This document shows positions 5,397 through 44,631 of a stretch of DNA of 64,000 bases, one piece after another. Under the pieces are notes generated by a model. The model did no database searches. It was given only the letters and a program-made list of their open reading frames with translations, and was not told where the DNA came from. How positions within the stretch are numbered: position 1 is the first letter of the stretch; each line of letters starts with the position of its first letter. The position numbers and the translations under genes were made by a program. This DNA comes from Escherichia coli. Lineage in GTDB: Bacteria; Pseudomonadota; Gammaproteobacteria; Enterobacterales; Enterobacteriaceae. The stretch lies in assembly GCF_003790525.1 (NCBI RefSeq), contig NZ_CP033635.1, one strand, 5' to 3'.

Positions 5397-5405
5397 GTCT
5401 GACAG

Positions 5406-5428
5406 GTGCCGGATTTCATATCCGGCAC
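5406..5428. terminator. Hairpin between convergent tpiA and cdh (likely bidirectional terminator)
   Basis: Perfect inverted repeat gtgccggat-ttca-tatccggcac. Confidence 0.6.
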
Positions 5429-5450
5429 TTACTTTCCTTAACTCCTCGCC

Positions 5451-6206: not shown

Positions 6207-6261
6207 CTTTTTTTCCCTGTACCTCAAAGAGATGCAAGGGTAACGCAAAATCGTGACAAAT

Positions 6262-6292
6262 AAAAAACCCGGTCGCGAGAAACCACCGGGTT
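6262..6292 (-). terminator. Rho-independent terminator after sbp
   Basis: Minus-strand hairpin aacccggtggtttctcgcgaccgggtt followed by a T-run. Confidence 0.6.
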
Positions 6293-6312
6293 TGATAATT
6301 ATCCTGGAGAAA

Positions 6313-7302
6313 TCAGCGTTTGCTGATCTGATCGAACGTACCGCCGTTAGCAAAATGCTCTTTTTGCGCTTTCGTCCAGCCGCCGAACTCTTCATCAATG
6401 GTGAATAACTTCAGCTTTGGAAACGCATTTTCGTACTTTTTCGCCACCTCAGCATCGCGCGGACGGTAGTAGTTTTTCGCGGCAATTTCCTGACCTTCTG
6501 GCGAGTAGAGATATTTCAGGTAGGCTTCCGCCACCTCTTTGGTGCCTTTTTTCTCGACCACTTTATCGACCACCGACACGGTTGGCTCTGCGAGGATAGA
6601 CTCACTCGGCGTGACGATTTCGAATTTATCTTTCCCCAGTTCATTCGCTGCCAGCAGAGCTTCGTTTTCCCAGGCGATCAGTACATCGCCAATTCCGCGC
6701 TCGACAAAAGTGTTAGTGGAGCCGCGCGCGCCAGAATCCAGAACTTCGACGTTTTTATACAGTGCCCGAACAAAATCCTGTGCTTTTGCCTGATCGTTGT
6801 TGTTGTGATGCAGCGCGTAGCCCCAGGCAGCCAGGTAGTTCCAGCGCGCGCCACCAGAGCTTTTCGGATTAGGCGTGATCACCGAAACACCCGGTTTAAT
6901 CAGATCGTTCCAGTCATGGATCTGCTTCGGATTGCCCTTACGTACCAGGAAAACAATGGTGGAAGTGTACGGTGCGGAGTTATCCGGCAGACGTTTGATC
7001 CACTCTTTATCAATCCGCCCGCGTTCCGCAATTGCGTCCACGTCATAGGCCAGAGCCAGAGTGACAACATCAGCTTCAATACCATTGATTACCGACGTCG
7101 CTTGTTTGCCTGAACCACCGTGGGACTGACGGATCACCACGTTATCGCCAGTTTGCTGTTTCCAGTGGGCGCTGAATGCCTTGTTGTACTGTTCGTACAA
7201 TTCGCGCGTTGGATCATATGAAACGTTAAGAAGCTGAATATCCTTTGCCATAACGCTGGTTGCCGCCAGCAAAAATGTTAACCCTACGCCCCACTTGTTC
7301 AT
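6313..7302 (-). CDS. sbp: Periplasmic sulfate-binding protein
   Basis: 329 aa with signal peptide ([19 protein letters not shown]). Confidence 0.9.
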
Positions 7303-7439
7303 CGCCCGACTCTCTTATGTTGTGTTGTGATGAGCAAAGCGTGCCAGAAGGTTAACCAAACATTAAAGAATAAAAAAAGATTGGCTATAACTTGCGGGTA
7401 TATGTTGAGGGATTAAAAAGGCGGAAGAAATCCGCCTCA

Positions 7440-7570
7440 TATTGCTGACAAAGTGCGCTTTGTCCATGCCGGATGCGGCGCGAACGCCTTATCCGGCCTA
7501 CAAAAGTTTGCAAATTCAATAAATTGCAGAATTCATGTAGGCCTGATAAGCGAAGCGCATCAGGCATTTT
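7440..7570. repeat. REP/BIME elements between sbp and pfkA
   Basis: Copies of the REP consensus gccggatgcggcgcgaacgccttatccggcctac and the inverted copy gtaggcctgataagcgaagcgcatcaggc. Confidence 0.75.
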
Positions 7571-7621
7571 TGCTTCTGTCATCGGTTTCAGGCTAAAGGA
7601 ATCTGCCTTTTTCCGAAATCA

Positions 7622-8584
7622 TTAATACAGTTTTTTCGCGCAGTCCAGCCAGTCGCCTTTGAACGGACGCTTCATGTTTTCGATAGCGTCGATGATGTCG
7701 TGGTGAACCAGCTGTTCGTTCTGGATACCTACGCAACGACCGCCGTAGCCTGCCAGCAGCAGATCGATAGCGTAAGCGCCCATACGGGAAGCCAGAATAC
7801 GGTCGTAAGGCACCGGAGAACCACCGCGCTGGATGTGGCCCAGCACAGTTGCGCGGGTTTCACGACCGGTTTCTTTCTCGATGAAATGCGCCAGTTCGTC
7901 AACATCACACATATGTTCGGTAATCGCCACGATCGCGTGTTTTTTACCTTTCGCGATACCCGCTTTGATTTCGTTTACCAGGTCTTCACGGCTGAATTCA
8001 ACTTCCGGAACTACAACGAATTCACAGCCACCAGCAATAGCCGCAGCCAACGTCAGATCGCCACAATAACGACCCATCACTTCCACCACGGAAATACGCT
8101 GGTGAGAAGAAGAGGTGTCACGCAGACGGTCGATCGCTTCTACAACGGTGCTCAGCGCAGTGAAGAAACCGATAGTGTAGTCAGTGCCTTTGATGTCGTT
8201 GTCGATAGTGCCCGGCAGGCCGATGCACGGGAAGCCCATTTCGGTCAGACGCATTGCACCCATGTAGGAACCGTCACCGCCGATAACCACCAGCGCATCG
8301 ATCCCACGTTTTTTCAGGTTTTCGATAGCCACGGCGCGGATGTTCTCGTCGCGGAATTCCGGGAAACGCGCAGAACCGAGGAACGTACCGCCACGGTTGA
8401 TCATGTCAGAAACGCTGTAACGGTCTAGCTGTACCATACGGTCTTCATACAGACCCAGATAGCCGTCATAAATGCCCATTACTTCCAGACCTTCTGTCAG
8501 CGCAGAACGAACAACCCCGCGAATTGCGGCGTTCATGCCTGGCGCATCACCGCCGCTTGTCAACACACCGATTTTCTTAATCAT
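7622..8584 (-). CDS. pfkA: 6-phosphofructokinase I
   Basis: 320 aa from [26 protein letters not shown]...; ORF-track start at 8680 is an extension. Confidence 0.95.
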
Positions 8585-8764
8585 GACTACCTCTGAACTT
8601 TGGAATGCAAAATGAAATCTGTTGCCGGAAGTCTTCTTGCACATCGAAGTGATCCAACGAATGTGCAAATAGTATAACAATCACTTCCTGCTGAATTGAT
8701 TCAGGTCAGGCCAAATGGCGGTATTTTATACACAAAATGCGGGTCTGGCTCTCTTTTATACTGA

Positions 8765-9667
8765 TTATGAAAGCATAGACCGTTTACCCTCCCTGGGTAC
8801 GACGGAACAGGGGTCCTGATGGATAATCACATCCGATCCCGGAAAACGCCGTAAAATAGCCTGCTCTACCTGATCCGCCACCATATGTGCCTGAACCAAA
8901 GGCAGAGAGTCTTCCATTTCCAAATGAATCTGAATAAAGCGGGTCGGCCCTGACTGCCGCGTGCGAAGATCGTGAGCGCCGCTAACACCCGGCCAGGAAG
9001 TCACGATATCAATAATTTCTTGCCGTTCTTCATCAGGCAATGCGCGATCCAGTAATGACTGTACCGCCTCATATCCCATGCGTAACGCGCTATATAAAAT
9101 ATAGATGCCGATTCCCAATGCAAACAGAGCATCGGCGCGATGCCAGCCGTACCAGGACAACCCCAGCGCCAGCAGAATTGCGCCGTTCATCATAACATCA
9201 GACTGGTAATGTAGCATATCAGCCCGCACCGCCTGGCTTTGCGTCCGGCGCACCACCCACCGCTGAAACGAGACAAGGATAATCGTACAAATTAGCGCCA
9301 CAATTGTCACGATAACCCCGACGCCTGGATCTGTCATCGGTGTTGGAGATACCAGATGTTGAATACCCGTCAAAAACAGGAATAGTGCCGAACCGGAGAT
9401 AAACATACTTTGCGCCAGCGCCGCGAGGGACTCAGCTTTACCGTGACCAAACGAGTGATTATCGTCGGCAGGTTGCAGGGAATATCGCACCACCAGTAAA
9501 TTCGTCAACGACGCGCCGATATCCACCAGCGAATCCACCAGCGCGGCGAGAATACTCACCGACCCGGTATACCACCATGCAAAAATTTTAATCAGCAATA
9601 GCAGCGAAGCCATCGCCGTCGCAGCAATCGCCGCCCGACTGACCAGCCGTCCATAAGATTGATTCAT
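8765..9667 (-). CDS. fieF: Cation-efflux (Fe/Zn) transporter, CDF family
   Basis: 300 aa from [32 protein letters not shown]...; CDF membrane domain plus C-terminal cytoplasmic domain. Confidence 0.9.
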
Positions 9668-9745
9668 AAATACTCCCGCTATCAACTGACGGTAGTATAA
9701 CGGAAGCAAATCATCTGCAATGCATTAAGCAGCAAGCAAATTGAG

Positions 9746-9792
9746 GATAAAAAAAACCCCCACATCATGTGGGGGAAGACAGGGATGGTGTC
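9746..9792. repeat. attL core (prophage-left copy of the cpxP-terminator repeat)
   Basis: gataaaaaaaacccccacatcatgtgggggaagacagggatggtgtc, identical over 47 bp to 44747..44793. Confidence 0.85.
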
Positions 9793-9840
9793 ACAAAAAA
9801 TCACCTAACCTACTGATATAAATGGATTTATATAAACCAC

Positions 9841-9860
9841 TGTCCACATAGCGTCCACAT
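9841..9860. promoter_or_regulatory. Putative integrase arm-type binding sites (tandem TGTCCACA repeats), left arm
   Basis: tgtccacatagcgtccacat; the same tandem motif recurs at 44646..44664 beside int. TGTCCACA is the reverse complement of the P2 Int arm consensus as recalled. Confidence 0.5.
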
Positions 9861-9891
9861 CGACCATAAATAAAGCCCCTCAACTGAGGGG

Positions 9892-11317
9892 TAATGCCGA
9901 TCAGTTAAGGATCAGTTGACCGATCCAGTGGCTGTGTAAGAATCCGGAAACGCTCACTTGTTTCCGGATTTTTTTATGCACATTGGACAGGCTCTTGATC
10001 TGGTATCCCGTTACGATTCTCTGCGTAACCCACTGACTTCTCTGGGGGATTACCTCGACCCCGAACTCATCTCTCGTTGCCTTGCCGAATCAGGTACTGT
10101 AACGCTACGCAAGCGCCGTCTTCCCCTCGAAATGATGGTCTGGTGTATTGTTGGCATGGCGCTTGAGCGTAAAGAACCTCTTCACCAGATTGTGAATCGC
10201 CTGGACATCATGCTGCCGGGCAATCGCCCCTTCGTTGCCCCCAGTGCCGTTATTCAGGCCCGCCAGCGCCTGGGAAGTGAGGCTGTCCGCCGCGTGTTCA
10301 CGAAAACAGCGCAGCTCTGGCATAACGCCACGCCGCATCCGCACTGGTGCGGCCTGACCCTGCTGGCCATCGATGGTGTGTTCTGGCGCACACCGGATAC
10401 ACCAGAGAACGATGCAGCCTTCCCCCGCCAGACACATGCCGGGAACCCGGCGCTCTACCCGCAGGTCAAAATGGTCTGCCAGATGGAACTGACCAGCCAT
10501 CTGCTGACGGCTGCAGCCTTCGGCACGATGAAGAACAGCGAAAATGAGCTTGCTGAGCAACTTATAGAACAAACCGGCGATAACACTCTGACGTTAATGG
10601 ATAAAGGTTATTACTCACTGGGACTGTTAAATGCCTGGAGCCTGGCGGGAGAACACCGCCACTGGATGATACCTCTCAGAAAGGGAGCGCAATATGAAGA
10701 GATCAGAAAACTGGGTAAAGGCGATCATCTGGTGAAGCTGAAAACCAGCCCGCAGGCACGAAAAAAGTGGCCGGGACTGGGAAATGAAGTGACAGCCCGC
10801 CTGCTGACCGTGACGCGCAAAGGAAAAGTCTGCCATCTGCTGACGTCGATGACGGACGCCATGCGCTTCCCCGGAGGAGAAATGGCGGATCTGTACAGTC
10901 ATCGCTGGGAAATCGAACTGGGATACAGGGAGATAAAACAGACGATGCAACTGAGCAGGCTGACGCTGAGAAGTAAAAAACCGGAGCTTGTGGAGCAAGA
11001 GCTGTGGGGTGTCTTACTGGCTTATAATCTGGTGAGATATCAGATGATTAAAATGGCGGAATATCTGAAAGGTTACTGGCCGAATCAACTGAGTTTCTCA
11101 GAATCATGTGGAATGGTGATGAGAATGCTGATGACATTGCAGGGCGCTTCACCGGGACGTATACCGGAGCTGATGCGCGATCTTGCAAGTATGGGACAAC
11201 TTGTGAAATTACCGACAAGAAGGGAAAGGGCCTTCCCGAGAGTGGTAAAGGAGAGGCCCTGGAAATACCCCACAGCCCCGAAAAAGAGCCAGTCAGTTGC
11301 TTAACTGACTGGCATTA
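9892..11317 (+). mobile_element. IS4 insertion sequence (1426 bp)
   Basis: Terminal inverted repeats taatgccgatcagttaagg / ccttaactgactggcatta (imperfect); flanked by a 13-bp direct duplication ctcaactgagggg at 9879..9891 and 11318..11330; single transposase ORF. Confidence 0.9.
9976..11304 (+). CDS. insG: IS4 transposase (DDE family)
   Basis: 442 aa from ATG 9976 ([40 protein letters not shown]...); ORF-track start at 9958 is a TTG extension. Confidence 0.9.
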
Positions 11318-11342
11318 CTCAACTGAGGGGCTATTTTTGTGA

Positions 11343-11561
11343 TCACATCCACATAATTTGCTGCCCTGACGGCAACGGGTGCGGCCTCACGGCGTGGACT
11401 TCTCCCGGCTTCACGATGTATCTCTGTACCGACTCATAAGTGATGAACGTGGCGCTGCAATTCACGTTCTGGCACTGGTGATAACGCTCTTTTGTCGTGT
11501 CAGTGATATAGCGGCTTGTACGCGCATGTGCGGCATGCTGGCATAAAGGACAATGAAACAT
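11343..11561 (-). CDS. ogr: Late-gene transcription activator Ogr (zinc finger)
   Basis: 72 aa, MFHCPLCQHAAHARTSRYITDTTKERYHQCQNVNCSATF...; four-Cys zinc finger; P2 Ogr length. Confidence 0.9.
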   Translation of the reverse strand: MFHCPLCQHAAHARTSRYITDTTKERYHQCQNVNCSATFITYESVQRYIVKPGEVHAVRPHPLPSGQQIMWM

Positions 11562-11642
11562 CGCGAGCACCTCTTCCGGTTTTGTTGATAGTGCCATTTT
11601 AGTTAAATTATCATTATAAAACAAAAAGATAAACAAAAGACA

Positions 11643-12806
11643 TCACTCATAATCTTCTGTTTCGTACTCCACATCAGAAAGCCTGACCTCAAGCTCTAAG
11701 GACGTCGTGAAGCCGCTATTATTCAGAAAATGTGTCACCTTAGTGACTGTCCAGTCCTGCTCGTCTATGACGCGCTTAAAGCCTGACACTCTGACCGGTG
11801 TTTCCGTGTAAATATCTGCACGACCGGTAGCCAGGATGATGGAGAACTCCGCAACGCCCCGTTGCAGTTTATCCCACTTCGCCTGAGCAGCACGCATGGC
11901 CTGTGCTTTCGTGGCATATACCGTGGTCAGGGCAAAAACGTTGTCAGCCTCACCGGCCATGTATTCACCTTCGCGCGCTTCCGGTACTTTTGGCGCTTTC
12001 TTCTGCGTGACTGGTTTCGCTTTCGGGTGCTCCAGTGCGCGCAGGTGTTTTTCTTTCTTTTTGCGTTTCAGTTTTACCTTCTGCTTTTGCGGCTTCGGGT
12101 CTTTGGTGTGAAGCCACTTTGCCGTTACGCCGGTATAGGCTCCACGGTCAGCAATCGCAAAATGATGACGGTCGCCGTCGCTGCGGGTGATGGTAATCTG
12201 CGGGATTTTTTTACCGCTGGCCGTCACCCCCTGCCCCGCTTTGAGAAACAACAGTTTTCCCATTTTTACCGACACCTCACCGCCGTTGCGTTCAGCAAGG
12301 CGGGTCAGGAATTTTGCATCAGACTCCTGCGACTGGTCGATGTGCGGGATTTTAATTCCGGCCAGTGACGGAGCGACACTGGCTTCCAGCCTGTTACGGG
12401 AGGCTATCGCCTCAACAATCGCACCGAGCGTGGTGTCATGCCAGGAGCCTTCACGGCGGGAATTGAGCGTGCCACGAAAATCTGCACTCCGGGCCCGGAT
12501 GGCGACCACATCCGGCGTGCCCCGGTGTTCTACCTCATCAACGGTGAATTTCCCTTTGCATACCAGGGCAAAACCTTTCCAGCCGATATACACCGTCAGA
12601 ACAGCGCCACGAACCGGCAGTTCGACCTGCCCGTCGGCATCGTTCAGTTCAATATCAAGCTGATCAGCCTCAAAGCCCCGGTTATCCGTCAGGGTCATGC
12701 TCATCAGACGGTCGCTGATATTGCCGGTAATATCCCTGCTGTCGAGCATCAGCATGTAATCCGGCGTCAGCGTACTGCCTGCATCAAATGTCAGCGCATC
12801 CAGCAT
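11643..12806 (-). CDS. D: Tail protein D
   Basis: 387 aa, same length and position as P2 gpD. Confidence 0.85.
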   Translation of the reverse strand: MLDALTFDAGSTLTPDYMLMLDSRDITGNISDRLMSMTLTDNRGFEADQLDIELNDADGQVELPVRGAVLTVYIGWKGFALVCKGKFTVDEVEHRGTPDVVAIRARSADFRGTLNSRREGSWHDTTLGAIVEAIASRNRLEASVAPSLAGIKIPHIDQSQESDAKFLTRLAERNGGEVSVKMGKLLFLKAGQGVTASGKKIPQITITRSDGDRHHFAIADRGAYTGVTAKWLHTKDPKPQKQKVKLKRKKKEKHLRALEHPKAKPVTQKKAPKVPEAREGEYMAGEADNVFALTTVYATKAQAMRAAQAKWDKLQRGVAEFSIILATGRADIYTETPVRVSGFKRVIDEQDWTVTKVTHFLNNSGFTTSLELEVRLSDVEYETEDYE

Positions 12807-31497: not shown

Positions 31498-31670
31498 TGT
31501 CAGGAGTCCTGAATAGTGATTAGAGGAGTCACATGTCGGCATCAGTTTCCCGACGATGCGCATCCTCCGCCATCAGTCCCGGATGGCTTATCACTGACAC
31601 AACAGCACCTTAGCGAATCGCGGGGCGCGACTCAGTAGCCTTGCCGTGTATTCATCACGGCGAGGTATTC

Positions 31671-33443
31671 ATGACCATCACCACAGACACCACTCTTTTA
31701 CACGACCCGCGTCGTCAGGCGGCGCTGCTGTACTGGCAGGGGTTTTCCGTGCCGCAGATTGCCGCCATGTTGCAGATGAAACGCCCGACGGTGCAGAGCT
31801 GGAAACAGCGCGACGGCTGGGACAGCGTTGCCCCCATCAGCCGTGTCGAAATGAGTCTGGAAGCGCGGCTGACCCAGCTCATCATCAAACCGCAGAAAAC
31901 CGGCGGTGACTTCAAGGAAATTGACCTGCTGGGACGCCAGATTGAACGACTGGCACGGGTCAACCGCTACAGTCAGACCGGCAACGAGGCAGACCTTAAT
32001 CCGAACATCGCTAACCGCAACAAAGGCGGGCGGCGCAAACCGAAAAAGAATTTTTTCAGCGACGAAGCCATCGAAAAGCTGGAGCAGATTTTCTTTGAGC
32101 AGTCTTTCGACTATCAGTTGCACTGGTATCGCGCCGGGCTTGAGCACCGCATCCGCGATATCCTGAAATCCCGCCAGATTGGCGCAACGTTTTATTTTTC
32201 CCGCGAGGCGCTGCTGCGTGCCCTGAAAACCGGTCATAACCAGATTTTTCTGTCGGCCAGTAAAACGCAGGCGTATGTGTTCCGCGAATACATCATCGCC
32301 TTTGCCCGGCTGGTTGACGTTGACCTGACCGGTGACCCGATTGTCCTGGGCAATAACGGCGCAAAACTGATTTTTCTCGGCACCAACTCCAACACCGCGC
32401 AGAGCCATAACGGCGACCTGTACGTCGACGAGATTTTCTGGATCCCGAATTTTCAGGTACTGCGTAAGGTGGCATCAGGTATGGCCTCACAGAGTCACCT
32501 GCGCTCGACCTATTTCTCCACCCCGTCCACGCTGGCGCACGACGCCTACCCGTTCTGGTCGGGTGAACTGTTTAACCGGGGACGCGCCAGCGCCGCCGAA
32601 CGCGTGGAAATCGACGTCAGTCATAACGCCCTTGCCGGTGGGCTTCTCTGTGCGGACGGCCAGTGGCGGCAGATTGTCACCATTGAGGACGCCCTGAAAG
32701 GCGGCTGCACGCTGTTCGACATTGAGCAGCTCAAACGCGAAAACAGCGCCGACGATTTTAAAAACCTGTTCATGTGTGAATTTGTTGACGACAAGGCGTC
32801 GGTATTCCCGTTCGAGGAGCTGCAACGCTGCATGGTCGACACGCTGGAAGAATGGGAAGACTATGCGCCGTTTGCCGCCAATCCGTTCGGCTCCCGCCCG
32901 GTATGGATTGGTTACGACCCGTCACACCGTGGCGACAGCGCCGGATGCGTGGTGCTGGCACCGCCGGTGGTGGCCGGAGGTAAATTCAGAATACTTGAGC
33001 GTCACCAGTGGAAAGGCATGGACTTTGCCACTCAGGCGGAATCCATCCGCAAACTCACCGAAAAATACAACGTCGAATACATCGGAATTGATGCCACCGG
33101 CCTCGGTGTCGGCGTGTTCCAGCTCGTGCGCTCGTTCTATCCCGCCGCGCGCGATATCCGCTACACGCCGGAAATGAAAACCGCAATGGTGCTCAAGGCA
33201 AAAGACGTCATCCGCCGTGGCTGTCTGGAATATGACGTCAGCGCCACCGACATCACCAGCTCGTTCATGGCTATCCGCAAGACCATGACCAGCAGCGGAC
33301 GCAGCGCCACCTATGAGGCCAGCCGTAGCGAGGAAGCCAGCCACGCCGACCTCGCCTGGGCGACCATGCACGCCCTGTTAAATGAGCCACTCACCGCCGG
33401 TATCAGCACCCCGCTGACATCCACCATTCTGGAGTTTTACTGA
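31671..33443 (+). CDS. P: Terminase large (ATPase) subunit P
   Basis: 590 aa from ATG 31671 (MTITTDTTLLHDPRRQAALLYWQGFSVPQIAAM...); ORF-track start at 31641 is a TTG extension. Confidence 0.85.
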   Translation: MTITTDTTLLHDPRRQAALLYWQGFSVPQIAAMLQMKRPTVQSWKQRDGWDSVAPISRVEMSLEARLTQLIIKPQKTGGDFKEIDLLGRQIERLARVNRYSQTGNEADLNPNIANRNKGGRRKPKKNFFSDEAIEKLEQIFFEQSFDYQLHWYRAGLEHRIRDILKSRQIGATFYFSREALLRALKTGHNQIFLSASKTQAYVFREYIIAFARLVDVDLTGDPIVLGNNGAKLIFLGTNSNTAQSHNGDLYVDEIFWIPNFQVLRKVASGMASQSHLRSTYFSTPSTLAHDAYPFWSGELFNRGRASAAERVEIDVSHNALAGGLLCADGQWRQIVTIEDALKGGCTLFDIEQLKRENSADDFKNLFMCEFVDDKASVFPFEELQRCMVDTLEEWEDYAPFAANPFGSRPVWIGYDPSHRGDSAGCVVLAPPVVAGGKFRILERHQWKGMDFATQAESIRKLTEKYNVEYIGIDATGLGVGVFQLVRSFYPAARDIRYTPEMKTAMVLKAKDVIRRGCLEYDVSATDITSSFMAIRKTMTSSGRSATYEASRSEEASHADLAWATMHALLNEPLTAGISTPLTSTILEFY

Positions 33444-34477
33444 TGAGCAAGAAAAAAGGGAAAACACCGCAACCTGCGGCAAAAAAAATGACCGCCAGCG
33501 CCCCGAAAATGGAGGCATTCACCTTTGGTGAGCCGGTGCCGGTACTCGACCGCCGTGACATTCTGGATTACGTCGAGTGCATCAGTAACGGCAGATGGTA
33601 TGAGCCACCAGTCAGCTTTACCGGTCTGGCAAAAAGCCTGCGTGCTGCCGTGCATCACAGCTCACCGATTTACGTCAAACGTAACATTCTGGCCTCAACG
33701 TTTATCCCACACCCGTGGCTTTCTCAGCAGGATTTCAGCCGCTTTGTGCTGGATTTTCTGGTATTCGGTAATGCGTTTCTGGAAAAGCGTTACAGCACCA
33801 CCGGTAAGGTCATCAGACTGGAAACCTCACCGGCAAAATATACCCGCCGTGGCGTGGAGGAGGATGTTTACTGGTGGGTGCCGTCCTTCAACGAGCCGAC
33901 ACCTTTCGCGCCCGGCTCCGTGTTTCACCTGCTGGAGCCGGATATTAATCAGGAGCTGTACGGTCTGCCGGAATATCTCAGCGCCCTTAACTCTGCCTGG
34001 CTGAATGAGTCGGCCACGCTGTTCCGCCGCAAGTATTACGAAAACGGCGCTCATGCCGGATATATCATGTACGTCACTGATGCCGTGCAGGATCGCAACG
34101 ATATCGAAATGCTTCGCGAAAACATGGTGAAGTCGAAAGGCCGCAACAACTTTAAAAACCTGTTTCTCTATGCCCCGCAGGGGAAAGCTGACGGCATTAA
34201 AATTATCCCGCTCAGTGAAGTGGCAACGAAGGACGATTTTTTTAATATCAAAAAAGCCAGCGCCGCTGACCTGCTGGACGCGCACCGCATCCCCTTTCAG
34301 TTGATGGGCGGCAAGCCGGAGAACGTCGGGTCGCTGGGTGATATTGAGAAAGTAGCAAAGGTCTTTGTCCGCAATGAGCTTATCCCGTTACAGGACAGGA
34401 TCCGCGAGATAAACGGCTGGCTCGGTCAGGAGGTCATCCGATTTAAAAACTACTCACTGGACACTGACAACGGCTGA
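33443..34477 (+). CDS. Q: Portal protein Q
   Basis: 344 aa; start overlaps the P stop (TGATG); P2 gpQ length. Confidence 0.9.
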   Translation: MSKKKGKTPQPAAKKMTASAPKMEAFTFGEPVPVLDRRDILDYVECISNGRWYEPPVSFTGLAKSLRAAVHHSSPIYVKRNILASTFIPHPWLSQQDFSRFVLDFLVFGNAFLEKRYSTTGKVIRLETSPAKYTRRGVEEDVYWWVPSFNEPTPFAPGSVFHLLEPDINQELYGLPEYLSALNSAWLNESATLFRRKYYENGAHAGYIMYVTDAVQDRNDIEMLRENMVKSKGRNNFKNLFLYAPQGKADGIKIIPLSEVATKDDFFNIKKASAADLLDAHRIPFQLMGGKPENVGSLGDIEKVAKVFVRNELIPLQDRIREINGWLGQEVIRFKNYSLDTDNG

Positions 34478-34482
34478 ACATC

Positions 34483-34504
34483 GCCGCCTGCGGGCGGCTT
34501 TTTT
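34483..34504 (+). terminator. Rho-independent terminator after Q
   Basis: Hairpin gccgcctgcgggcggc followed by tttttt. Confidence 0.7.
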
Positions 34505-34646
34505 ACACCCCGTCATCACGCCCTCACACGTTCGCCACTGTACAAAACACCCCGCAGACACACCAACGCCCCGGCAGGCCGACTAAACGCCATCACGACG
34601 CGCTCAGACGCTGAAAAAATAAAATCAGCACCACCGCCAGCGCGCA

Positions 34647-34665
34647 GTGCTTTCCCCGCCTCGCC
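34647..34665 (-). other. cos site (19-nt cohesive end)
   Basis: Reverse complement of gtgctttccccgcctcgcc is GGCGAGGCGGGGAAAGCAC, matching the P2 cohesive-end sequence as recalled; lies between Q and the cargo locus as in P2. Confidence 0.7.
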
Positions 34666-34892
34666 CGCCCGCTTCATGGGTCGGTTTTGATGCAATTCCA
34701 AAAGCCGTCCAAACTCTCTTAGGCTAAATGTCCAACGAGAAAATAGTTCTTTGAATGTGAATGCATTTTAATGCAGAGTTATGCCCAGCATTTTTGTACA
34801 CTTCGATGTATCAAATGCGCTGCAAACGATCAAATATGGATGTTTTATCAAGCATCCCCCAAAAGATATTTACATCATCCCATGAGGTTAAG

Positions 34893-35966
34893 ATGGATAA
34901 CAAAATCGTAGAAATTGAGACAAATAAGCTTGATTTTGACCCTAAAAACCCACGTTTCTTTCGTCTCAATGATGCCAGTAACGCTGCAACAGTCATTGAG
35001 GAAATGTTAGATGACGAAAGTGTCCACGATCTAATGCTATCAATCGGTCAGCAAGGTTACTTTCCTGGAGAACCTTTATTGGCAGTAAAAAGCAATGGAA
35101 ACTACATCGTGGTTGAGGGAAACAGACGCTTAGCTGCTGTAAAGTTGCTCAATGGAGATCTGCTTCCTCCAAAAAGAAAACTTAAAGGTGTGCAAGAAAT
35201 CATTGATGATACTACCAATAAACCTAAGAAGCTTCCCTGCATCATTTATGAAAACCGAGAGGATGTACTGAGATATATCGGTTATCGTCATATAACTGGG
35301 GTCAAAGAATGGGACTCATTATCTAAAGCCAAATACCTTAAAGAGTTATGTGATACTTTTTATTCACATGAGCCTAAAGAGATAGTATTAAAAAATCTGG
35401 CTCGTGAGATTGGGAGTAAACCACATTATGTTGCAACACTTCTCACTGCACTGAACTTATATGAAGTCGCGCATGACCATGAGTTTTTTAATTTACCCAT
35501 GAAGGCTTCTGACGTGGAATTTTCATATATAACCACAGCTTTGGGATATTCAAAAATCACAAACTGGTTAGGTCTACAGGATAAAAAGGATTTTTTAGAC
35601 CCAAATTTAAATGAAGAAAACCTTAAGCGTTTATTCTCTTGGTTTTTTGTGCCTGACCAACAAGGTAGAACCATCATCGGTGAGTCTCGAAGAATAAAAG
35701 ATATTGCAGCAGTGGTTGAGAAACCCGAAGCAATTGAAATTCTCATGAAAAGTTCAAACTTGGATGAAGCATATCTATATACCAGCGGAGAAAGAGAAGC
35801 ATTAGATAAAGCACTAAACGCAGCTAGTGTTAAATTAAGAGTAGTTTGGGATATGCTACTTAAAGCTAAAGAATTAACATTAGAGCATGAAGAGGCTGCA
35901 TCTGAAATTTTTGAGATGTCAAAAAATATTAGAAATCAGATCAGAAGCAAAAGGGAGGATGATTGA
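34893..35966 (+). CDS. ParB/Srx-like N-terminal domain protein (cargo gene 1 at the old/tin position)
   Basis: 357 aa from ATG 34893 (RBS gagg upstream); ParB-box-like motifs LDFDPKNPRF and IVVEGNRRLAAVKLL; AT-rich. Confidence 0.7.
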   Translation: MDNKIVEIETNKLDFDPKNPRFFRLNDASNAATVIEEMLDDESVHDLMLSIGQQGYFPGEPLLAVKSNGNYIVVEGNRRLAAVKLLNGDLLPPKRKLKGVQEIIDDTTNKPKKLPCIIYENREDVLRYIGYRHITGVKEWDSLSKAKYLKELCDTFYSHEPKEIVLKNLAREIGSKPHYVATLLTALNLYEVAHDHEFFNLPMKASDVEFSYITTALGYSKITNWLGLQDKKDFLDPNLNEENLKRLFSWFFVPDQQGRTIIGESRRIKDIAAVVEKPEAIEILMKSSNLDEAYLYTSGEREALDKALNAASVKLRVVWDMLLKAKELTLEHEEAASEIFEMSKNIRNQIRSKREDD

Positions 35967-35970
35967 GATT

Positions 35971-36996
35971 ATGATTACAAATCTTGATTCAATGCCTTCT
36001 AATGAGCCTTATTTATGGGCTGATTATATTGAGATATTGGCCTTAACTAATATCGACAGGTCATTCAGTCGAGGAGACCTATATAGCACACTGCAAGCTC
36101 AACCCGAAGCAGTACTAGCTGAAACAGATGAAGCAGAAGAAGAGGGCGTTTATGATGTTGATGATGAAAATGATACGCCTGTACGCAAGAGAACAAAACG
36201 AAGTGTTAGTCGAGCATATACTGACAGAAAGTGGAGCTATGCGATAGGCTTCATACGACAACGCATTGATTTATTTGGGGATAGTTACCCTTTTACTTTA
36301 TCAGAAGACAACGATACTGTAGAGTTACGTGATATATCAGAAAAGCCACTGGAACATTTAGAAAGACTATATTTAGCTTTACTAATCTGTGCTAACATAA
36401 AATATGTCAACATAATGAGCAGAAGAGAGATAACGCGCAGTTTTGAACTAATTAGTTTACCTATTTTTGAAAGCCTAATGCCTAGCGGTAGCATAATAAA
36501 AGCATGCTGGGCTTCTGGTGGTCAAGCGGCCCCTTACACTGGAACTCTATATAATAAATTTAAGAGTATTGCTTCCGATATCCGTTGCACAGCGAACTTC
36601 AAAGAACGAGATTTCAGTCGAGGAAATAGTGGTGACGGAGGCCTTGACATAATTGCCTGGCATCCAATGGGAGATCAACGAGATGCCATCCCTATTTCTT
36701 TTGTTCAGTGTGGCTGTTCTCAAGAAGAGTGGGAAGCGAAGCAGCTTGAGGCCTCACCTGCGATGCTCTACAGTAAATTCCCCGTAGCTCACCGATGGGC
36801 AACTTATTATTTCTTACCTCAAGATCTACGATGGATAGATGGTGAGTGGGCGCATAAAAATAAGTTAGGCGATGCTATTTTTGTTGATCGCCTAAGATTA
36901 ATCAATTTAACCAGAGCATCTGATAATATTGATCACAGTCAAAATATTAGCTATCTAGATATCATCCTTGATCCTTCCAGCGCGATCGCTGCTTAA
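35971..36996 (+). CDS. Hypothetical protein, possible PD-(D/E)xK-type nuclease (cargo gene 2)
   Basis: 341 aa; starts 4 nt after gene 1 (alternative ATG 35959 overlaps its stop); contains GDGGLDIIAW ... ISFVQCGCSQEEWEAK, resembling an Mrr-type catalytic core but lacking the canonical QCK lysine. Confidence 0.6.
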   Translation: MITNLDSMPSNEPYLWADYIEILALTNIDRSFSRGDLYSTLQAQPEAVLAETDEAEEEGVYDVDDENDTPVRKRTKRSVSRAYTDRKWSYAIGFIRQRIDLFGDSYPFTLSEDNDTVELRDISEKPLEHLERLYLALLICANIKYVNIMSRREITRSFELISLPIFESLMPSGSIIKACWASGGQAAPYTGTLYNKFKSIASDIRCTANFKERDFSRGNSGDGGLDIIAWHPMGDQRDAIPISFVQCGCSQEEWEAKQLEASPAMLYSKFPVAHRWATYYFLPQDLRWIDGEWAHKNKLGDAIFVDRLRLINLTRASDNIDHSQNISYLDIILDPSSAIAA

Positions 36997-37931
36997 TCCC
37001 ATAAATCTGGAAGGTTTCTAGCAACCGCCTCAAACAATGGAGGCGGTACTGCATTACCTACCACAGTATATTTCATATTAATAGAAGCCCGTTCAGTTTC
37101 TGGGAAAATTAAATCCCCAAAACCTTGTAAAATAGCAGCCTCTCGATAGCTAAACCTACGAGCTGGTGCATCCGAAGTAAATTGCCACTTATCAGGTCCC
37201 AATTTTTCTAATGTTGGACTTATTGGATGTAGAGGCATATGTCTAGGATTTGCAACAATTGTTTTAGATATCTGATCCCAATCTTGCCTACGGTTTCGCG
37301 ATAGATAATACCAATGAAAATCGGCGTCATAAAACTCGCCAACAGGCCAAACAGGCATATGCCCAATAGCATCACGAATTGTGGAATATGGTGTCAAACC
37401 ATCACCATGTGTTGGTTTTGGAAATTTGTATGTAATACCGTAGTCCTTTCGTATTCCTACGATAAAGATTCGCTTCCTATCTTGGGATACCCCATAATGG
37501 GACGCATTCAGAATTTGCGAGCTTACTGTATAACCTGCTTCTTCGAAAACTTTGAATTGATCCTTTAATAAATGCTCAAAGTTACGCCTTACCATACCAG
37601 AGACATTCTCTACAATGAATGCTTTTGGCTTAATTTTACTCAAAGCACGGGCAAACTCTAAATATAGTGTATTAATCTTTCTATCTGCCTTCCTTGCCCC
37701 ACCTTGACTAAATCCTTGGCAAGGATAGCATCCGATGAGCAACTCAGCAGAAGGGAACGACTGGAGCCCTGAGATATCGCCCAAAATGTAGTCAGTTTCA
37801 GGATGGTTTTCTAAGTAAACGTCCCTTGCGTAAGGCAAAATATCATTTGCCATAAGCACATTGAAACCTGCGTTCAAAACTCCCGCATCAGAACCACCAC
37901 ATCCAGAAAAAAGTGAAACTACAGTTGGCAT
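36993..37931 (-). CDS. DNA cytosine-5 methyltransferase, HaeIII/HhaI-type small m5C MTase (cargo gene 3)
   Basis: 312 aa with motif I FSGCGG, motif IV PCQGFS, motif VI ENV, motif VIII QDRKR, motif X GNAVPPPL, plus YYLSRNRRQDW resembling the M.HaeIII variable region; convergent with gene 2 (4-bp overlap). Confidence 0.85.
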   Translation of the reverse strand: MPTVVSLFSGCGGSDAGVLNAGFNVLMANDILPYARDVYLENHPETDYILGDISGLQSFPSAELLIGCYPCQGFSQGGARKADRKINTLYLEFARALSKIKPKAFIVENVSGMVRRNFEHLLKDQFKVFEEAGYTVSSQILNASHYGVSQDRKRIFIVGIRKDYGITYKFPKPTHGDGLTPYSTIRDAIGHMPVWPVGEFYDADFHWYYLSRNRRQDWDQISKTIVANPRHMPLHPISPTLEKLGPDKWQFTSDAPARRFSYREAAILQGFGDLIFPETERASINMKYTVVGNAVPPPLFEAVARNLPDLWD

Positions 37932-38173
37932 TGACCCCTCCTAAAAACCGACCGCGTATTATAGCGAAACACCCCGTTGGGAAAAGCTAGATTTTGCCAA
38001 GTCTTGATATTCTCACGTTTTAGTAGTTGTGGCCATCTTTAACGAGAAAAAGATAAAATTGACTTCTCATTAATTTTCAATAGGTTTAATTGTAAGCTCA
38101 AACTAACGCCTCGCGACACTCGTTATTCAACCCCGCCAGCCCTGAAAACAAGTTTCACGACTGGCGGCGTTCT

Positions 38174-38323
38174 CTATCGTCTGCGTTGTGGTGGCGCAAC
38201 TCTGGACTGACCGATATGGTTAAACCGCCCGTAATTATCCCGGACTATTTCGGCACACCCGACCAGCTCATCGGGCGTCAGATTTTCGTTGACCATAATC
38301 CGCTGTAAACGCTGAACAATAGC
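38174..38323 (-). CDS. Small hypothetical ORF downstream of the orf91-position gene
   Basis: About 49 aa from MAIVQRLQRIMVNENLTPDELVGCAEIVRDNYGRF...; start and reality uncertain. Confidence 0.3.
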   Translation of the reverse strand, partial: AIVQRLQRIMVNENLTPDELVGCAEIVRDNYGRFNHIGQSRVAPPQRRR

Positions 38324-38379
38324 CATCAGCTTGATATTTTTAGTTTTATGGTGCGGTATCTCGCCTGGTATTCTGTGCA

Positions 38380-38832
38380 TTATCCAAGCCACCCGTTTTG
38401 CTGTGCACGCTCCATCTGTTCATCTGAATAGTTCCATGCTCCATCCGTGGCAACCATTGCCCCGCCAGACATCCCCGTCTCTGGTTCATACATAACAGCA
38501 AGGCCGAGCTGATGCATAATTTCATGATTAATTCTGAATACCAGGCCACGCTCACTAAGTTCTTTCCAGTTCACAATCTCATATGCGCCTGTATTAAGCA
38601 GCTCAATACTTAGCAAGACATAATCTTCCAGCCAGTCTGACAGGTCAGTAACATCTGTTATCCGGGCTTCAACATTTCGCCCCGTATACACACCCTGCAC
38701 CCATTCATACAAAATCAACGTGTCCCCGCGCTCATAATTACGGTCATTTTTCCGGAACTCTGCACGTTTCTTTCCTTCCAGCACAAGGTCGAAATATTTT
38801 GCGTGCAGCTTTACCTCGTGAATTTTTGCCAT
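38380..38832 (-). CDS. ASCH/DUF3850-like protein at the orf91 position
   Basis: 150 aa from MAKIHEVKLHAKYFDLVLEGKKRAEFRKNDRNYERGDTLILYEW...; start overlaps the A stop by one nucleotide. Confidence 0.6.
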   Translation of the reverse strand: MAKIHEVKLHAKYFDLVLEGKKRAEFRKNDRNYERGDTLILYEWVQGVYTGRNVEARITDVTDLSDWLEDYVLLSIELLNTGAYEIVNWKELSERGLVFRINHEIMHQLGLAVMYEPETGMSGGAMVATDGAWNYSDEQMERAQQNGWLG

Positions 38833-41117
38833 TATGTCCACTCCATTACTGTTGAGAATCCCGGCCACTCATCAGCGACCGGATACGTGAATTTTTTCCC
38901 GTCATAATTTACGGTCGCGCCACGCGCCAGCGCCTCAAGCTCCCATCGCTGCGGCCTGATACCGTTCTGAGCAAGGTCAACGCGGATACGGGTAATTTGC
39001 GTTCGTTCCGACCGGGTCAGTCTGGCCGATGGCGCTATTTCATGTGGTTTTAACGGGCTTCCGTTTCTCTGCTGACGATTTGGTGTTCTCAGTTCGTGTT
39101 TTAATGCACCTCTGAGCGCCCTCACGACCTCTGGCTCATTCCATTCGATAACACCGTCATCAACCAGATTAAGCACGGCTGCGGCATGTTCATAAGGTGT
39201 GGGAGCCGGTAACGAAGTATCACTGCCGGTGAGCTTTCCACAGTTATTGACAGGACTCCGAGGCGCGGCGATGCCGCTTTTTAAAGTCAAAGGCTCAACG
39301 ACCGGAACTTTCGGCACAATGCGCCAGTCCGTCGTTCTGGTGATATGAATATGACGCGCGCCGAGATGCGGCGCGTAAATACCGACCACTCTCTCGACTT
39401 CTTCCTCGTACTCGTTAACGTCACTCGACGGGCTACGGGCAACCCTGACAGTCTGACAATCGCGCGGGACATTTGCCCCACCCTGCGCGCTGATATACAA
39501 CGCAAAATCACCACTGTCTGCGGCAGCGCGAGCAGCCTCGACGCGTTCGTCAAACTCATCAGCAATACTGACGCCGCGAGGTAATTTGCGTAGTTCACGG
39601 TAAGCCCCCATTGTCGGTAGGCCAACCGTTTTAAATTGCGGAATGCGCCACGTTGACGCCCATGCGGTAACAGCCGCGGCAGTGTCTTTCAGCGGCCTGC
39701 CGGTATCGTTATCGAGCTGACCATCCAGTGCATAGCCGTCGATGTTTTTTGAAATGTATTTCGCGATATACCCCGCAGCACCGCCCCGATTAAGGTGTTT
39801 TGCCTGAAAACGGTTTCGCGCGGCTCCTCTTTCGTCGCCATCCTCTTTGAGCGCATAGCGACGCATGATTTCGATAATCTGGTTACGCTGGCGCGAATTA
39901 CAAAAAAGCATCATATGCCAGTGCGGCGTTCCGTCGTGGTGTGGCTCGACGACACGCAAACCGTAGACCTGTAAATCATTATCCTTGAATGCCGTGCGCA
40001 TCAGGCTCCAGATACGGCAGAGATAACGCTGCGCATCCTTTGGATTAAATGCCTCATCGTTCCAGCCGTGATTAAGCTGCACGGTTTTACTTTCGCCTTT
40101 TCCTACCTGACGTGTCGGGTGATACTTTGACGGCGCGGTCAGCGTGATAAACATCCCCACATCACCCTCTGCAGCGGCGTAACGCTCAATACCGGCAATG
40201 GTGTTCATCAGCTCCATCCGGCGAATTTCAGGATTAGAAATACTGCCCATCACCTTACTGATAAGGTCGATGCGCTCGCCGGTTTCCCTGTTTTCAAGGT
40301 CACACGATTTAAGAAATTCCAGATTTGCCTGGCGGCGCGCACGCACATCACGAATGGCATGTTTACTGGCATAAGGTGAACGGTCTTTATTGACCTCCCC
40401 GACAGCAATCAGTAACGCCTCATGCCAGCGCATACGCTGGCCTTTAAGCTGTCTAATCCACCACTCATCGTTAAACAGGCGGGCAATGGCAGAATATGCC
40501 TGCCTCGTGGTCATCTGCCCTTTACGGTATTTTCTCCAGTACAGCGGGGAAATATTGAAAGCACGTGCAGCGCCAGCAACATGACCATACAGGTGAGCCT
40601 GCGCCTCATCCGTAAACAGCGATTCTTTTTCGCCATGGGCATCCACCCAGGCATCGCAGAGTTCCTCATACATCATGAAAAGCTGCGATGAGATACGGGC
40701 GGCAAACTTTTTCAGCTCCTTGTCATTCATTCCCGGCAGGCGCGCATAGTGGTCACGCTCTGCCAGAAACAGCAACGACGCGTCGGTGTTCATTTCATGG
40801 CGCTGATTCACACGCTCAATGCGCGGCCATAAACGACGCTGAAAAGTGGATGTGAGGAAATAAAACCCGTGCACCGGGCTTTTATTGCGCCGGATGTAGT
40901 CATAGCGTGAAGTAAACAGCGAGCGCAAAAAGTAAGGCAGGCGGTTAATCGTGGATAAAACACCTTGCACCTGACGCATCTCATCACGTGTAAGGGGTCT
41001 TTCGCGCCCGACGGCCTCGCGTGGCGCGTTCCATGCATAAGCACCGGTAAACATCTTACCGGTGCCTGCGGCAAATGCTGACGGAGGGACAAAACGCCCG
41101 GAGGCTTTAACGGCCAT
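38832..41117 (-). CDS. A: Replication initiation protein A (rolling-circle nicking endonuclease)
   Basis: 761 aa from MAVKASGRFVPPSAFAAGTGKMF...; P2 gpA length. Confidence 0.85.
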   Translation of the reverse strand: MAVKASGRFVPPSAFAAGTGKMFTGAYAWNAPREAVGRERPLTRDEMRQVQGVLSTINRLPYFLRSLFTSRYDYIRRNKSPVHGFYFLTSTFQRRLWPRIERVNQRHEMNTDASLLFLAERDHYARLPGMNDKELKKFAARISSQLFMMYEELCDAWVDAHGEKESLFTDEAQAHLYGHVAGAARAFNISPLYWRKYRKGQMTTRQAYSAIARLFNDEWWIRQLKGQRMRWHEALLIAVGEVNKDRSPYASKHAIRDVRARRQANLEFLKSCDLENRETGERIDLISKVMGSISNPEIRRMELMNTIAGIERYAAAEGDVGMFITLTAPSKYHPTRQVGKGESKTVQLNHGWNDEAFNPKDAQRYLCRIWSLMRTAFKDNDLQVYGLRVVEPHHDGTPHWHMMLFCNSRQRNQIIEIMRRYALKEDGDERGAARNRFQAKHLNRGGAAGYIAKYISKNIDGYALDGQLDNDTGRPLKDTAAAVTAWASTWRIPQFKTVGLPTMGAYRELRKLPRGVSIADEFDERVEAARAAADSGDFALYISAQGGANVPRDCQTVRVARSPSSDVNEYEEEVERVVGIYAPHLGARHIHITRTTDWRIVPKVPVVEPLTLKSGIAAPRSPVNNCGKLTGSDTSLPAPTPYEHAAAVLNLVDDGVIEWNEPEVVRALRGALKHELRTPNRQQRNGSPLKPHEIAPSARLTRSERTQITRIRVDLAQNGIRPQRWELEALARGATVNYDGKKFTYPVADEWPGFSTVMEWT

Positions 41118-41382
41118 ATGAGCCAAAAGCCTCTGAACAACGCCTGCTGAGTTGCTCAACCTGCGCGTTTAAATCAGCAAAAGACTTTGCGCTTCCGGTC
41201 AGAATATCGTGATGCATCAGGCCGGAAACGAGCTGGCTTAATTTCGGGTAATAACCAACCACCGCCAGCCATTCCTGACCGGCGTTTTTACCGCTTTCAG
41301 CTCTCTTTTTCTCGTGGAGAATAAACTGAAAGCTGTCACTGGTAACGACATAACGTTCGCCAATTTCAATACGAATACTCAT
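41107..41382 (-). CDS. P2 orf83-like small protein
   Basis: 91 aa ORF in the conserved early-operon position, tightly packed with neighbours. Confidence 0.6.
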   Translation of the reverse strand: MSIRIEIGERYVVTSDSFQFILHEKKRAESGKNAGQEWLAVVGYYPKLSQLVSGLMHHDILTGSAKSFADLNAQVEQLSRRCSEAFGSYGR

Positions 41383-43581: not shown

Positions 43582-43650
43582 CACTCTATAAACATTACAT
43601 TTTCACCATTTGTTACCAAGATGGTGAATACAGCGTCAGAGGGCTTTCTT

Positions 43651-44631
43651 ATGTCAATTAAGAAGCTCGATGATGGACGCTATGAAGTGGACATTAGACC
43701 TCGCGGTCGCGACGGAAAACGCATCCGCAGGAAATTTGAAAGAAAAGCTGAGGCTGTAGCATTTGAGCGATACACAATCGCCTACGCCAGCCAGAAAGAA
43801 TGGGCAGGTCAGCGAGCAGATCGCAGAACTTTGAGTGAGTTGCTGAACATCTGGTGGAAATATCACGGGCAAAACCACGAGCATGGAACAAAAGAGTTTA
43901 ATCATCTGCTCAAAACCATCAGCGGCATAGGTGATATACCAGTGAGCCGGATGAGCAAAAGAGCTTTGATGGATTATCGTTCCATGCGACTACGTGATGG
44001 TATCAGTGCCGCAACGATAAACCGTGACATGTACCGATTATCCGGCATGTTCACAAAATTAATTCAATTGGATGAATTTTCCGGGCAACACCCAATTCAC
44101 GGACTGCCGCCACTGGCGGAGGCCAACCCTGAAATGACGTTCCTGGAAAAAGCAGAAATCGAAAAACTGTTAAATGTTTTGGATGGTGATGACTTACTTG
44201 TCGCACTTTTATGTCTGAGCACTGGAGGAAGATGGACGGAAGTTGCCACGCTAAAACCAGCACAGATTACAAATTGCAGGGTTACCTTCCTGAAAACCAA
44301 AAACGGTAAAAAGCGAACCGTGCCGATTTCTGAGGAACTGGAGAAAAAAGTTAAAGAGGAGGCCAGCGCTAAATTATTCAAAGTTGATTATGAGAAGTTT
44401 TGCGGGATTTTACGCAGAGTGAAGCCAGATATACCACCCAATCAGGCAACCCACATCCTGCGGCATACATTCGCAAGCCATTTCATGATGAATGGGGGCA
44501 ATATAATCGCACTGCAACAGATTCTGGGACATGCGAGCATTCAGCAGACGATGGCCTATGCGCACCTTGCGCCTGACTACCTGCAAAATGCCGTCGCGCT
44601 GAATCCTCTAAAAGGCGGAGTGACGTTATAA
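43651..44631 (+). CDS. int: Tyrosine integrase
   Basis: 326 aa from MSIKKLDDGRYEVDIRPRGRDGKRIRRKF...; C-terminal catalytic region ...HILRHTFASHFMMNGGNIIALQQILGHASIQQTMAYAHL; ORF-track start at 43621 is a 10-codon extension. Confidence 0.85.
   Translation: MSIKKLDDGRYEVDIRPRGRDGKRIRRKFERKAEAVAFERYTIAYASQKEWAGQRADRRTLSELLNIWWKYHGQNHEHGTKEFNHLLKTISGIGDIPVSRMSKRALMDYRSMRLRDGISAATINRDMYRLSGMFTKLIQLDEFSGQHPIHGLPPLAEANPEMTFLEKAEIEKLLNVLDGDDLLVALLCLSTGGRWTEVATLKPAQITNCRVTFLKTKNGKKRTVPISEELEKKVKEEASAKLFKVDYEKFCGILRRVKPDIPPNQATHILRHTFASHFMMNGGNIIALQQILGHASIQQTMAYAHLAPDYLQNAVALNPLKGGVTL

Follow-up and report, generated by a model that had tools for sequence, protein, structure and literature searches.

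Which function is encoded by the three AT-rich genes that lie between the portal gene Q and the replication gene A in a P2-like prophage of Escherichia coli? The question is raised by a 64,000 nt stretch of contig NZ_CP033635.1 (RefSeq assembly GCF_003790525.1; hereafter the window), in which three long open reading frames (ORFs) are found within 34761-37931: 34761-35966 and 35887-36996 on the plus strand and 36993-37931 on the minus strand. They encode a ParB/Srx-fold protein (g1), a candidate nuclease effector (g2) and a HaeIII-like 5-methylcytosine (m5C) DNA methyltransferase. The ORFs are real genes and not chance open frames because they match PHROG 3694, PHROG 3984 and TIGR00675, respectively. 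A first-pass annotation, made from the sequence alone, had placed the cassette at the old/tin position of P2 and had described it as markedly AT-rich. Both descriptions hold: the cassette occupies the P2 cos-proximal hotspot, with Q on one side and gpA on the other, where P2 itself carries old and tin, and its GC content is 0.35-0.44 over 34750-37750 versus 0.52-0.60 in the flanking DNA.

We favour, with slightly better than even confidence, the reading that the three genes form one modification-coupled restriction module, which is gated by a ParB-fold NTPase and in which the mark blocks cleavage. This reading is based on the synteny of the genes, their Vsr neighbours, the substitution of one modification module for another, the pattern of decay and the precedent of the prophage-borne system PD-lambda-5. 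In support, Rousset et al., 2022 independently labelled the same trio "RM-like" (restriction-modification-like). The cassette itself is already known from the genes of phage Wphi, from this "RM-like" entry and by homology to PD-lambda-5. New here are a domain-level view of g2, an estimate of how large its unannotated family is, the strict g1-g2 pairing across phyla and the swapping of the pair among m5C, N6-methyladenine (m6A) and phosphorothioate modification partners.

The cassette encodes a ParB-fold protein, a candidate nuclease and an m5C methylase

The g1 gene (34893-35966, plus strand) encodes a 357-aa protein and ends at TGA 35964-35966. The first-pass annotation had begun this ORF at 34761; the frame is indeed open from there, but this is only the longest possible ORF, and the true start is probably ATG 34893, because homologue alignments and the RefSeq gene begin at this codon and a GAGG motif is located 6 nt upstream. 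The protein matches PHROG 3694 (E 1.5e-155). Its N-terminus is a ParB N-domain bearing the motifs DPKNPR and GNRR; a helical stretch follows, and the C-terminus forms a long helical hairpin, which could be a dimerisation element. As first proposed from the sequence, g1 belongs to the ParB/Srx superfamily, having both the ParB N-domain fold and the box II GxxR arginine motif. The defence-profile searches that the first-pass annotation had suggested gave PD-Lambda-5_A and the PADLOC candidate PDC-M38A on g1. In PADLOC, 25 families were matched, 24 of which were PD-Lambda-5_A profiles; the best of these (E 3.2e-24) covered ORF residues 45-195, corresponding to the N-terminal ~150 residues of g1, and the matches reached only profile positions 1 to ~160 of 428-592, while PDC-M38A matched most of the protein. 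The parB_part model scored 29.9 bits, below its cutoff of 58.45. No match to the DndB domain (DGQHR; TIGR03187/TIGR03233) was found in g1 or its dnd-linked homologues, nor did g1 or g2 match DUF262 or DUF1524 in Pfam, NCBIfam or PADLOC. Presumably g1 binds a nucleotide; its box III-like residues E120 and N121 are not conserved across the family, and a recent survey of ParB-CTPases concluded that nucleotide specificity is not predictable from sequence.

The g2 gene (35971-36996, plus strand) encodes a 341-aa protein and is separated from g1 by 4 nt, the spacing already noted for these two co-oriented genes, when ATG 35971 is taken as its start; the alternative ATG at 35959, used by RefSeq, overlaps the g1 stop codon. 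PHROG 3984, a family of unknown function, was its only match (E 4.8e-151), with none in Pfam, NCBIfam or PADLOC. A profile search retrieved 3242 representatives of the g2 family, which comprises >3000 clusters at 50% identity and for which Pfam and NCBIfam hold no model. The structural model of g2 is confident and contains an N-terminal winged helix and a C-terminal PD-(D/E)xK-like domain; the fold matches are weak, to winged-helix proteins at the N-terminus and at the C-terminus to PD-(D/E)xK enzymes including MspJI, N.BspD6I, AspBHI, NgoMIV, Bse634I, Cfr10I, SdaI, NucS and HamA. In a broad alignment, D18, E21, R98, YPF106-108, D222-G-G, D226, W254 and D306-R-x-R309 were invariant and E159, Q246 and K257 nearly so. 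These residues would fit, but do not prove, a nuclease active site with a relocated lysine, and g2 is regarded as a putative nuclease. An acidic low-complexity insert at about residues 47-85 (EAVLAETDEAEEEGVYDVDDENDT...; 36109-36225, plus strand), delimited by alignment, is shared by the Wphi type and a small number of other clades, and most of the ~305-aa homologues lack it. The predicted local distance difference test (pLDDT) score falls to 61-75 in this insert, which could be an autoinhibitory or DNA-mimicking loop.

The methylase gene (36993-37931, minus strand) encodes a 312-aa protein that scored 185.6 bits against TIGR00675 (cutoff 100.65). Motifs I, IV, VI, VIII and X are present in the translation as FSGCGG, PCQ, ENV, QDRKR and GNAVPP, and the closest solved relative is M.HaeIII (1DCT; E 1.6e-48), which aligns over residues 4-307, including the target-recognition domain. 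The first-pass description of a full HaeIII-type m5C methyltransferase is therefore correct. Conserved arginines of the methylase align to HaeIII R225, R227 and R243, which we take to be the residues contacting GGCC; for this reason GGCC is probably the target, although we treat it as a lead and not as a result. The motif ANPRHMPLHP in the recognition domain is nearly universal among the methylases linked to g1-g2. The gene converges on g2, and the two stop codons share TTAA at 36993-36996, so that the convergent layout with a 4-bp tail-to-tail overlap is as first described. The same overlap occurs in L004, L015, L016, L017, L021 and L023, among other homologous loci (L numbers, see below).

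The g1-g2 pair recurs beside different modification modules

A genome scan starting from g2, with one genome per species, yielded 44 loci (these and the other loci compared here are designated by L numbers), which were scored with hidden Markov models of g1 and g2 and with the window methylase. The loci represent at least eight phyla: Proteobacteria, Campylobacterota, Acidobacteriota, Armatimonadota, Chloroflexota, Bacillota, Planctomycetota and Bacteroidota. A g1 homologue is located immediately 5′ of g2 in 41 of the 44; in the three exceptions, g1 is deleted and g2 truncated (L030) or the upstream DNA ends at a contig edge (L031 and L032). An m5C methylase adjoins the pair in 30 loci, mostly in convergent orientation and often with the same 4-bp overlap, sometimes co-directional or upstream. 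The first-pass annotation had held that finding the three genes unlinked in other genomes would speak against a common module; these counts instead reveal linkage. The order ParB-like gene, g2, m5C methylase was found in Ramlibacter, Methylomonas and an Enterobacter P2-like prophage, the first three contexts examined, and a Vsr gene is present in the two chromosomal ones (Ramlibacter and Methylomonas). Over all loci compared, Vsr adjoins the methylase in L003, L004, L014, L060 and L061.

In other loci the m5C methylase is replaced by a different modification module. The dndC, dndD and dndE genes, in places with dndB or dndA, lie beside g1-g2 in L044, L045, L046, L047, L049 and L053; in L047, for example, the pair spans 4680-6723 and dndE/D/C/B span 6757-11667. 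DptH is encoded beside the pair in L042 and L047, and a true, separate DndB in L047 and L059, whereas dndFGH were not seen in the available sequence of L044, L049 and L053. In two Bacteroidales loci (L051:2707-6870 and L052:216-4379), a PD-lambda-5_A-like gene and a PD-Lambda-5_B Dam-type methylase gene (E 1e-108) are followed by co-directional g1 and g2, so that two ParB-based modules appear to share one methylase. A different type II methylase accompanies the pair in L055. The g1-g2 pairs not linked to an m5C methylase are more divergent, with 22-28% identity in g2.

Altogether, a modification module is adjacent in about 40 of the 44 loci, on chromosomes, on conjugative elements and at unrelated phage positions. 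An independent sample of four loci, taken from the separate profile search that gave the 3242 family representatives, had a modification module in every case: an m5C methylase in three, two of them with Vsr, and dndBCD, transcribed divergently, in the fourth (L059). The same trio is carried by Pseudomonas phage D14A, at a different place of the phage genome, and by Yersinia phage HQ103.

Three further arrangements were observed in these loci. In Yersinia phage HQ103 (MZ420230.2), a complete ORF for a 314-aa m5C methylase (L056:2335-3279), convergent with two annotated hypothetical genes, is unannotated in the public record. In Chloracidobacterium, a 113-aa HTH_26 protein is encoded just 5′ of g1-g2-methylase (L058:3427-3768, on the same contig as L033); it may be a C-protein-like controller, which has no counterpart in the E. 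coli cassette. In two Campylobacterota loci (L048:3215-4933 and L050:3180-4898), a GmrSD/SspE-like gene (PADLOC Orf5/HEC-06) overlaps the start of g1, possibly a methylase-independent version of the pair.

The pair and the methylase are exchanged separately and decay unequally

Between Wphi and vB_EcoM-12474II (L002), the methylases are 98% identical while g1 and g2 share 32% and 25% identity, respectively. The DNA similarity to vB_EcoM-12474II begins exactly at the g2/methylase stop overlap (36994 onward), which indicates that g1-g2 and the methylase are exchanged as separate units. Across the 26 loci with a main-clade methylase, methylase identity is 60-84%, whereas g1 falls to about 35-40% and g2 to 26%. 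The identities of g1 and g2 to the window proteins co-vary (Spearman 0.93, n = 38), for which shared ancestry alone could be the source.

Decay was observed in one direction. A truncated or fragmented g2 stands beside an intact methylase in L030 and L038, and g2 is interrupted by the insertion sequence (IS) IS5 in two E. coli strains; conversely, no intact g1-g2 beside a broken methylase was found among the m5C-linked loci. Such a pattern is what a lethal restriction partner restrained by the methylase would be expected to produce.

The cassette recurs in E. coli and has been tested for defence

Phage Wphi (AY135739) carries this 3.3-kb block at 99.9-100% identity, with the genes named gp98, gp96 and mth, and a record bearing the label Peduovirus P2 contains an identical copy as well. 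Matches were found in 140 of 5426 complete E. coli genomes (about 2.6%), comprising the whole cassette at ≥99% identity in 103 and the methylase part only, at 90-95%, in 36. Many carriers retain the cassette within what is left of a decayed P2 prophage, whose portal and gpA genes are truncated. Three carriers have IS elements, IS5 inside g2 in two and IS2 5′ of g1 in one (L009, L010 and L011), and the methylase is intact in all three.

Proteins 1-3 of plasmid pFR107, the three-gene "RM-like" entry from the P2 locus of E. coli ATCC 9637 (Rousset et al., 2022), are identical to the window methylase, g2 and g1, respectively. The first-pass annotation did not recognise the trio as a described defence system; this view has to be abandoned in light of pFR107, of Wphi gp98/gp96/mth and of the PD-Lambda-5_A match to g1. 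In the same study, P2-hotspot system #2 carries the note "RM-like system" and accounts for 1136 occurrences of 18,150 loci (Table S5B), and its representative proteins include a 12474II-type g2 and a Wphi-type g1. The published account of pFR107 consists of the label and the listing; it contains no domain analysis of g2, no mechanism, no distribution outside phages and no dnd-linked relatives. In the literature searched, PDC-M38 is not mentioned and a defence system of ParB, m5C methylase and nuclease is not described, and the g1-g2 pair does not appear in the ParB-CTPase survey or in two comparative-genomics papers on BREX and Dnd systems.

Two other P2-hotspot systems of that study should be distinguished from the cassette. 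We considered whether Rst_3HP, a three-gene P2 system active against P1, is the same trio and rejected this, as no domains can be recognised in Rst_3HP and pFR107 has an entry of its own. Table S5A further records DUF262, DNA_methylase and HEPN proteins (WP_000351260, WP_001697730 and WP_000373633); here a PD-T4-2-like pair is joined by an m5C methylase, an arrangement similar in logic to the ParB-nuclease-methylase trio.

A modification-coupled restriction model and its alternatives

In the mechanism that we favour, the HaeIII-like methylase would mark host and prophage DNA, probably at GGCC. The ParB-fold protein g1 would engage DNA and, as a switch or clamp that depends on a nucleotide, would gate g2 or bring it into position; g2, with its winged helix and PD-(D/E)xK-like domain, would cut DNA devoid of the mark. 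The two would be translationally coupled and work as one reader-effector pair, which could be plugged into different self-marking modules, as the relatives suggest. Methylation would thus block cleavage rather than license it as phosphorothioate does for SspE, and the module would presumably act against phages. The resemblance to a type II restriction-modification (R-M) module that the first-pass annotation had pointed out is strengthened by a three-gene synteny reaching far beyond phages; no defence, however, is listed for pFR107.

Several observations weigh against this model. Rousset et al., 2022 tested pFR107 under its native promoter in K-12 MG1655 with a panel of eight phages, placed it in Table S2B ("additional tested systems") and not in Table S2A ("validated"), and named only three further P2 systems as protective, pFR107 not being one of them. 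A restriction enzyme with a 4-bp site should have restricted several phages of such a panel. Moreover, the best 150 of the 3242 g2-family representatives include no g1-g2 fusion, all being stand-alone proteins of 263-379 aa, and no modification gene is present in the available sequence of L048 and L050, and possibly of L024 and L054, both of which are cut by contig ends. The literature records no in vivo restriction of phage or foreign DNA by the cassette, in a setting where compatibility with host McrBC and Mrr was uncontrolled. MG1655 is mcrBC+ and mrr+, and GGm5CC is a substrate of McrBC; for these reasons a functional clone may not have been tolerated and the test may have been unfair, which is a plausible excuse and not evidence. 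An mrr-deleted host was needed for PD-lambda-5 (Vassallo et al., 2022).

The mark might license attack instead of blocking it, as in SspE: g1 would sense the mark, its NTPase cycle would license g2 to nick or cut the invader or to trigger abortive infection, and the mark would give no protection against g2. To this we assign a low though appreciable probability. SspE joins a ParB-superfamily NTPase domain to a nuclease and depends on host phosphorothioate for its activity; distant g1-g2 pairs adjoin dnd modification genes, and PD-lambda-5 has been described as combining R-M with abortive infection (RM+Abi). Licensing would also accommodate the two very different g1-g2 alleles beside the same methylase and the toleration of pairs with no methylase nearby. 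Yet the loss of the nuclease with retention of the methylase, never the reverse, better suits a lethal restriction partner, the DUF262/DGQQR signature is missing from g1, and g2 does not belong to the HNH proteins. The blocking and licensing models cannot be separated computationally. If, on the other hand, the locus held two unrelated cargoes, an orphan or anti-restriction phage methylase and an independent g1-g2 defence or type IV-like module, the start of the similarity to the 12474II-type cassette at the g2/methylase boundary would be readily understood, since the parts recombine as separate modules; some pairs indeed have no adjacent methylase, some adjoin GmrSD/SspE-like or type IV genes, and the published test of the trio was negative. 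This is improbable given the adjacency of a modification module in about 40 of the 44 loci and all four further samples in diverse contexts, the conserved 4-bp stop overlap and the frequent presence of Vsr, and a modification-dependent nuclease beside an active methylase would be self-toxic.

There is a similarly small chance that the cassette is a selfish addiction module, which would mainly use post-segregational killing to stabilise the prophage, or what remains of it, and would contribute little or nothing to phage defence. Its retention in P2 remnants with truncated portal and gpA genes and the one published test with no reported defence are in line with this explanation, which requires the same biochemistry and is compatible with restriction activity; the hotspot, however, houses many validated defences, and the relative PD-lambda-5 does defend. 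A role in partition or maintenance, in which the ParB-like protein would aid segregation of the phage genome as a plasmid, seems highly improbable. The ParB fold and GNRR motif of g1 brought it to mind, as did the mention that about a quarter of P2-like phages have a putative partition system (Rousset et al., 2022). We rejected it, because that "plasmid partitioning system" is a different cassette, StbA/Plasmid_stab_B (system #1). The set that defines ParABS, namely a ParA partner, centromere repeats and a ParB with a helix-turn-helix, was not found: the cassette has no ParA gene, and a repeat search for parS-like sites or operator arrays returned only short repeats at chance level. The obligate partner of g1 is nuclease-like, and its context elsewhere consists of modification and defence genes.

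Relation of the cassette to known systems

PD-lambda-5 consists of a ParB/HEPN protein and a Dam-type methylase, confers broad phage defence and was interpreted by its discoverers as a "compacted" prophage RM+Abi system (Vassallo et al., 2022). The cassette likewise pairs a ParB N-domain protein with a DNA methyltransferase on a prophage. However, PD-lambda-5 A is ~440-500 aa long with a weak HEPN/DUF4145-like C-terminus, in contrast to the 357 aa and helical-hairpin C-terminus of g1, and the two-gene PD-lambda-5 employs a Dam-type m6A methylase as its B component (PF02086, MethyltransfD12), while the cassette has a convergent m5C methylase (PF00145 type) and g2 as a third gene. With a different effector, methylase class and gene number, the cassette is not PD-lambda-5 as defined.

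With SspE, GmrSD and BrxU, some of them linked to phosphorothioation, the cassette shares the logic alone of an NTPase of the ParB superfamily that works with a nuclease able to tell DNA apart by its modification state. Those systems are single fused proteins with DGQQR-type DUF262 and DUF1524 HNH domains, whereas here two proteins combine a GNRR-type ParB with a non-HNH effector. Closer in layout are classical type II m5C R-M systems with Vsr, such as those of HaeIII type recognising GGCC, with which the cassette has in common the HaeIII-like methylase, the convergent tails, the Vsr neighbours of its relatives and the decay to an orphan methylase. Unlike in those systems, the restriction side would comprise two obligately paired genes, one of ParB fold, and the cassette cannot yet be filed as a type II R-M system.

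The dnd-linked relatives invite comparison with the HARE-HTH+REase (restriction endonuclease) proteins and other dnd-neighbourhood nucleases for which Krishnan et al. (NAR 2024) proposed the role of true restriction partner. Those proteins have an REase fold and an N-terminal winged-helix-type reader; g2 is modelled with a similar arrangement and has relatives adjacent to dnd genes. That study mentions ParB only for DndB, and we do not equate the winged helix of g2 with HARE-HTH. Beyond the favoured model lies a broader proposal, in which g1-g2 would be a portable, general reader-effector for interchangeable self-marks (m5C, m6A, possibly N4-methylcytosine, and phosphorothioate), the unrecognised restriction partner of dnd clusters devoid of dndFGH and the founding example of a large family. 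We hold this broader proposal as possible but on balance doubtful. Many dnd clusters have no dndFGH, and g1-g2 is a candidate for their missing restriction partner.

If the cassette restricts DNA, it would extend the range of restriction architectures by one that places a separate nuclease under the control of a ParB-fold nucleotide switch, and the mechanism class of PD-lambda-5 would be explained as well. The system that includes this cassette type ranks second in abundance at the P2 hotspot, yet neither g1 nor g2 carries a family annotation. Laboratory hosts that are McrBC+ are unlikely to be compatible with a HaeIII-like methylase.

Features flanking the cassette

On the Q side, the terminase gene P (31641-33443) and the portal gene Q (33443-34477) are followed by a cos-proximal spacer, which contains a terminator-like hairpin at 34483-34498, and then by the leader of g1 (together 34478-34892, plus strand). 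In this leader, an imperfect palindrome at 34749-34778 (AATGCATT...AATGCA) precedes the g1 start; it could be an operator, although the repeat scan puts it no higher than chance. A scan for promoter and terminator consensus sequences yielded no more hits than shuffled sequence did and placed no promoter 5′ of g1; a tRNA scan of the window found none. On the opposite side, the intergenic region 5′ of the methylase (37932-38173, minus strand) presumably holds its promoter. Between this region and the replication gene A (38832-41159) lie a small ORF of 72 aa (38174-38392) and a DUF3850/ASCH gene with a 162-aa ORF (38380-38868), and the integrase gene is found at 43621-44631. The DUF3850/ASCH gene and the 72-aa ORF (38174-38868) stay with the cassette in decayed prophage remnants, and fusions of ParB with DUF3850 are common in phages according to the ParB-CTPase survey.

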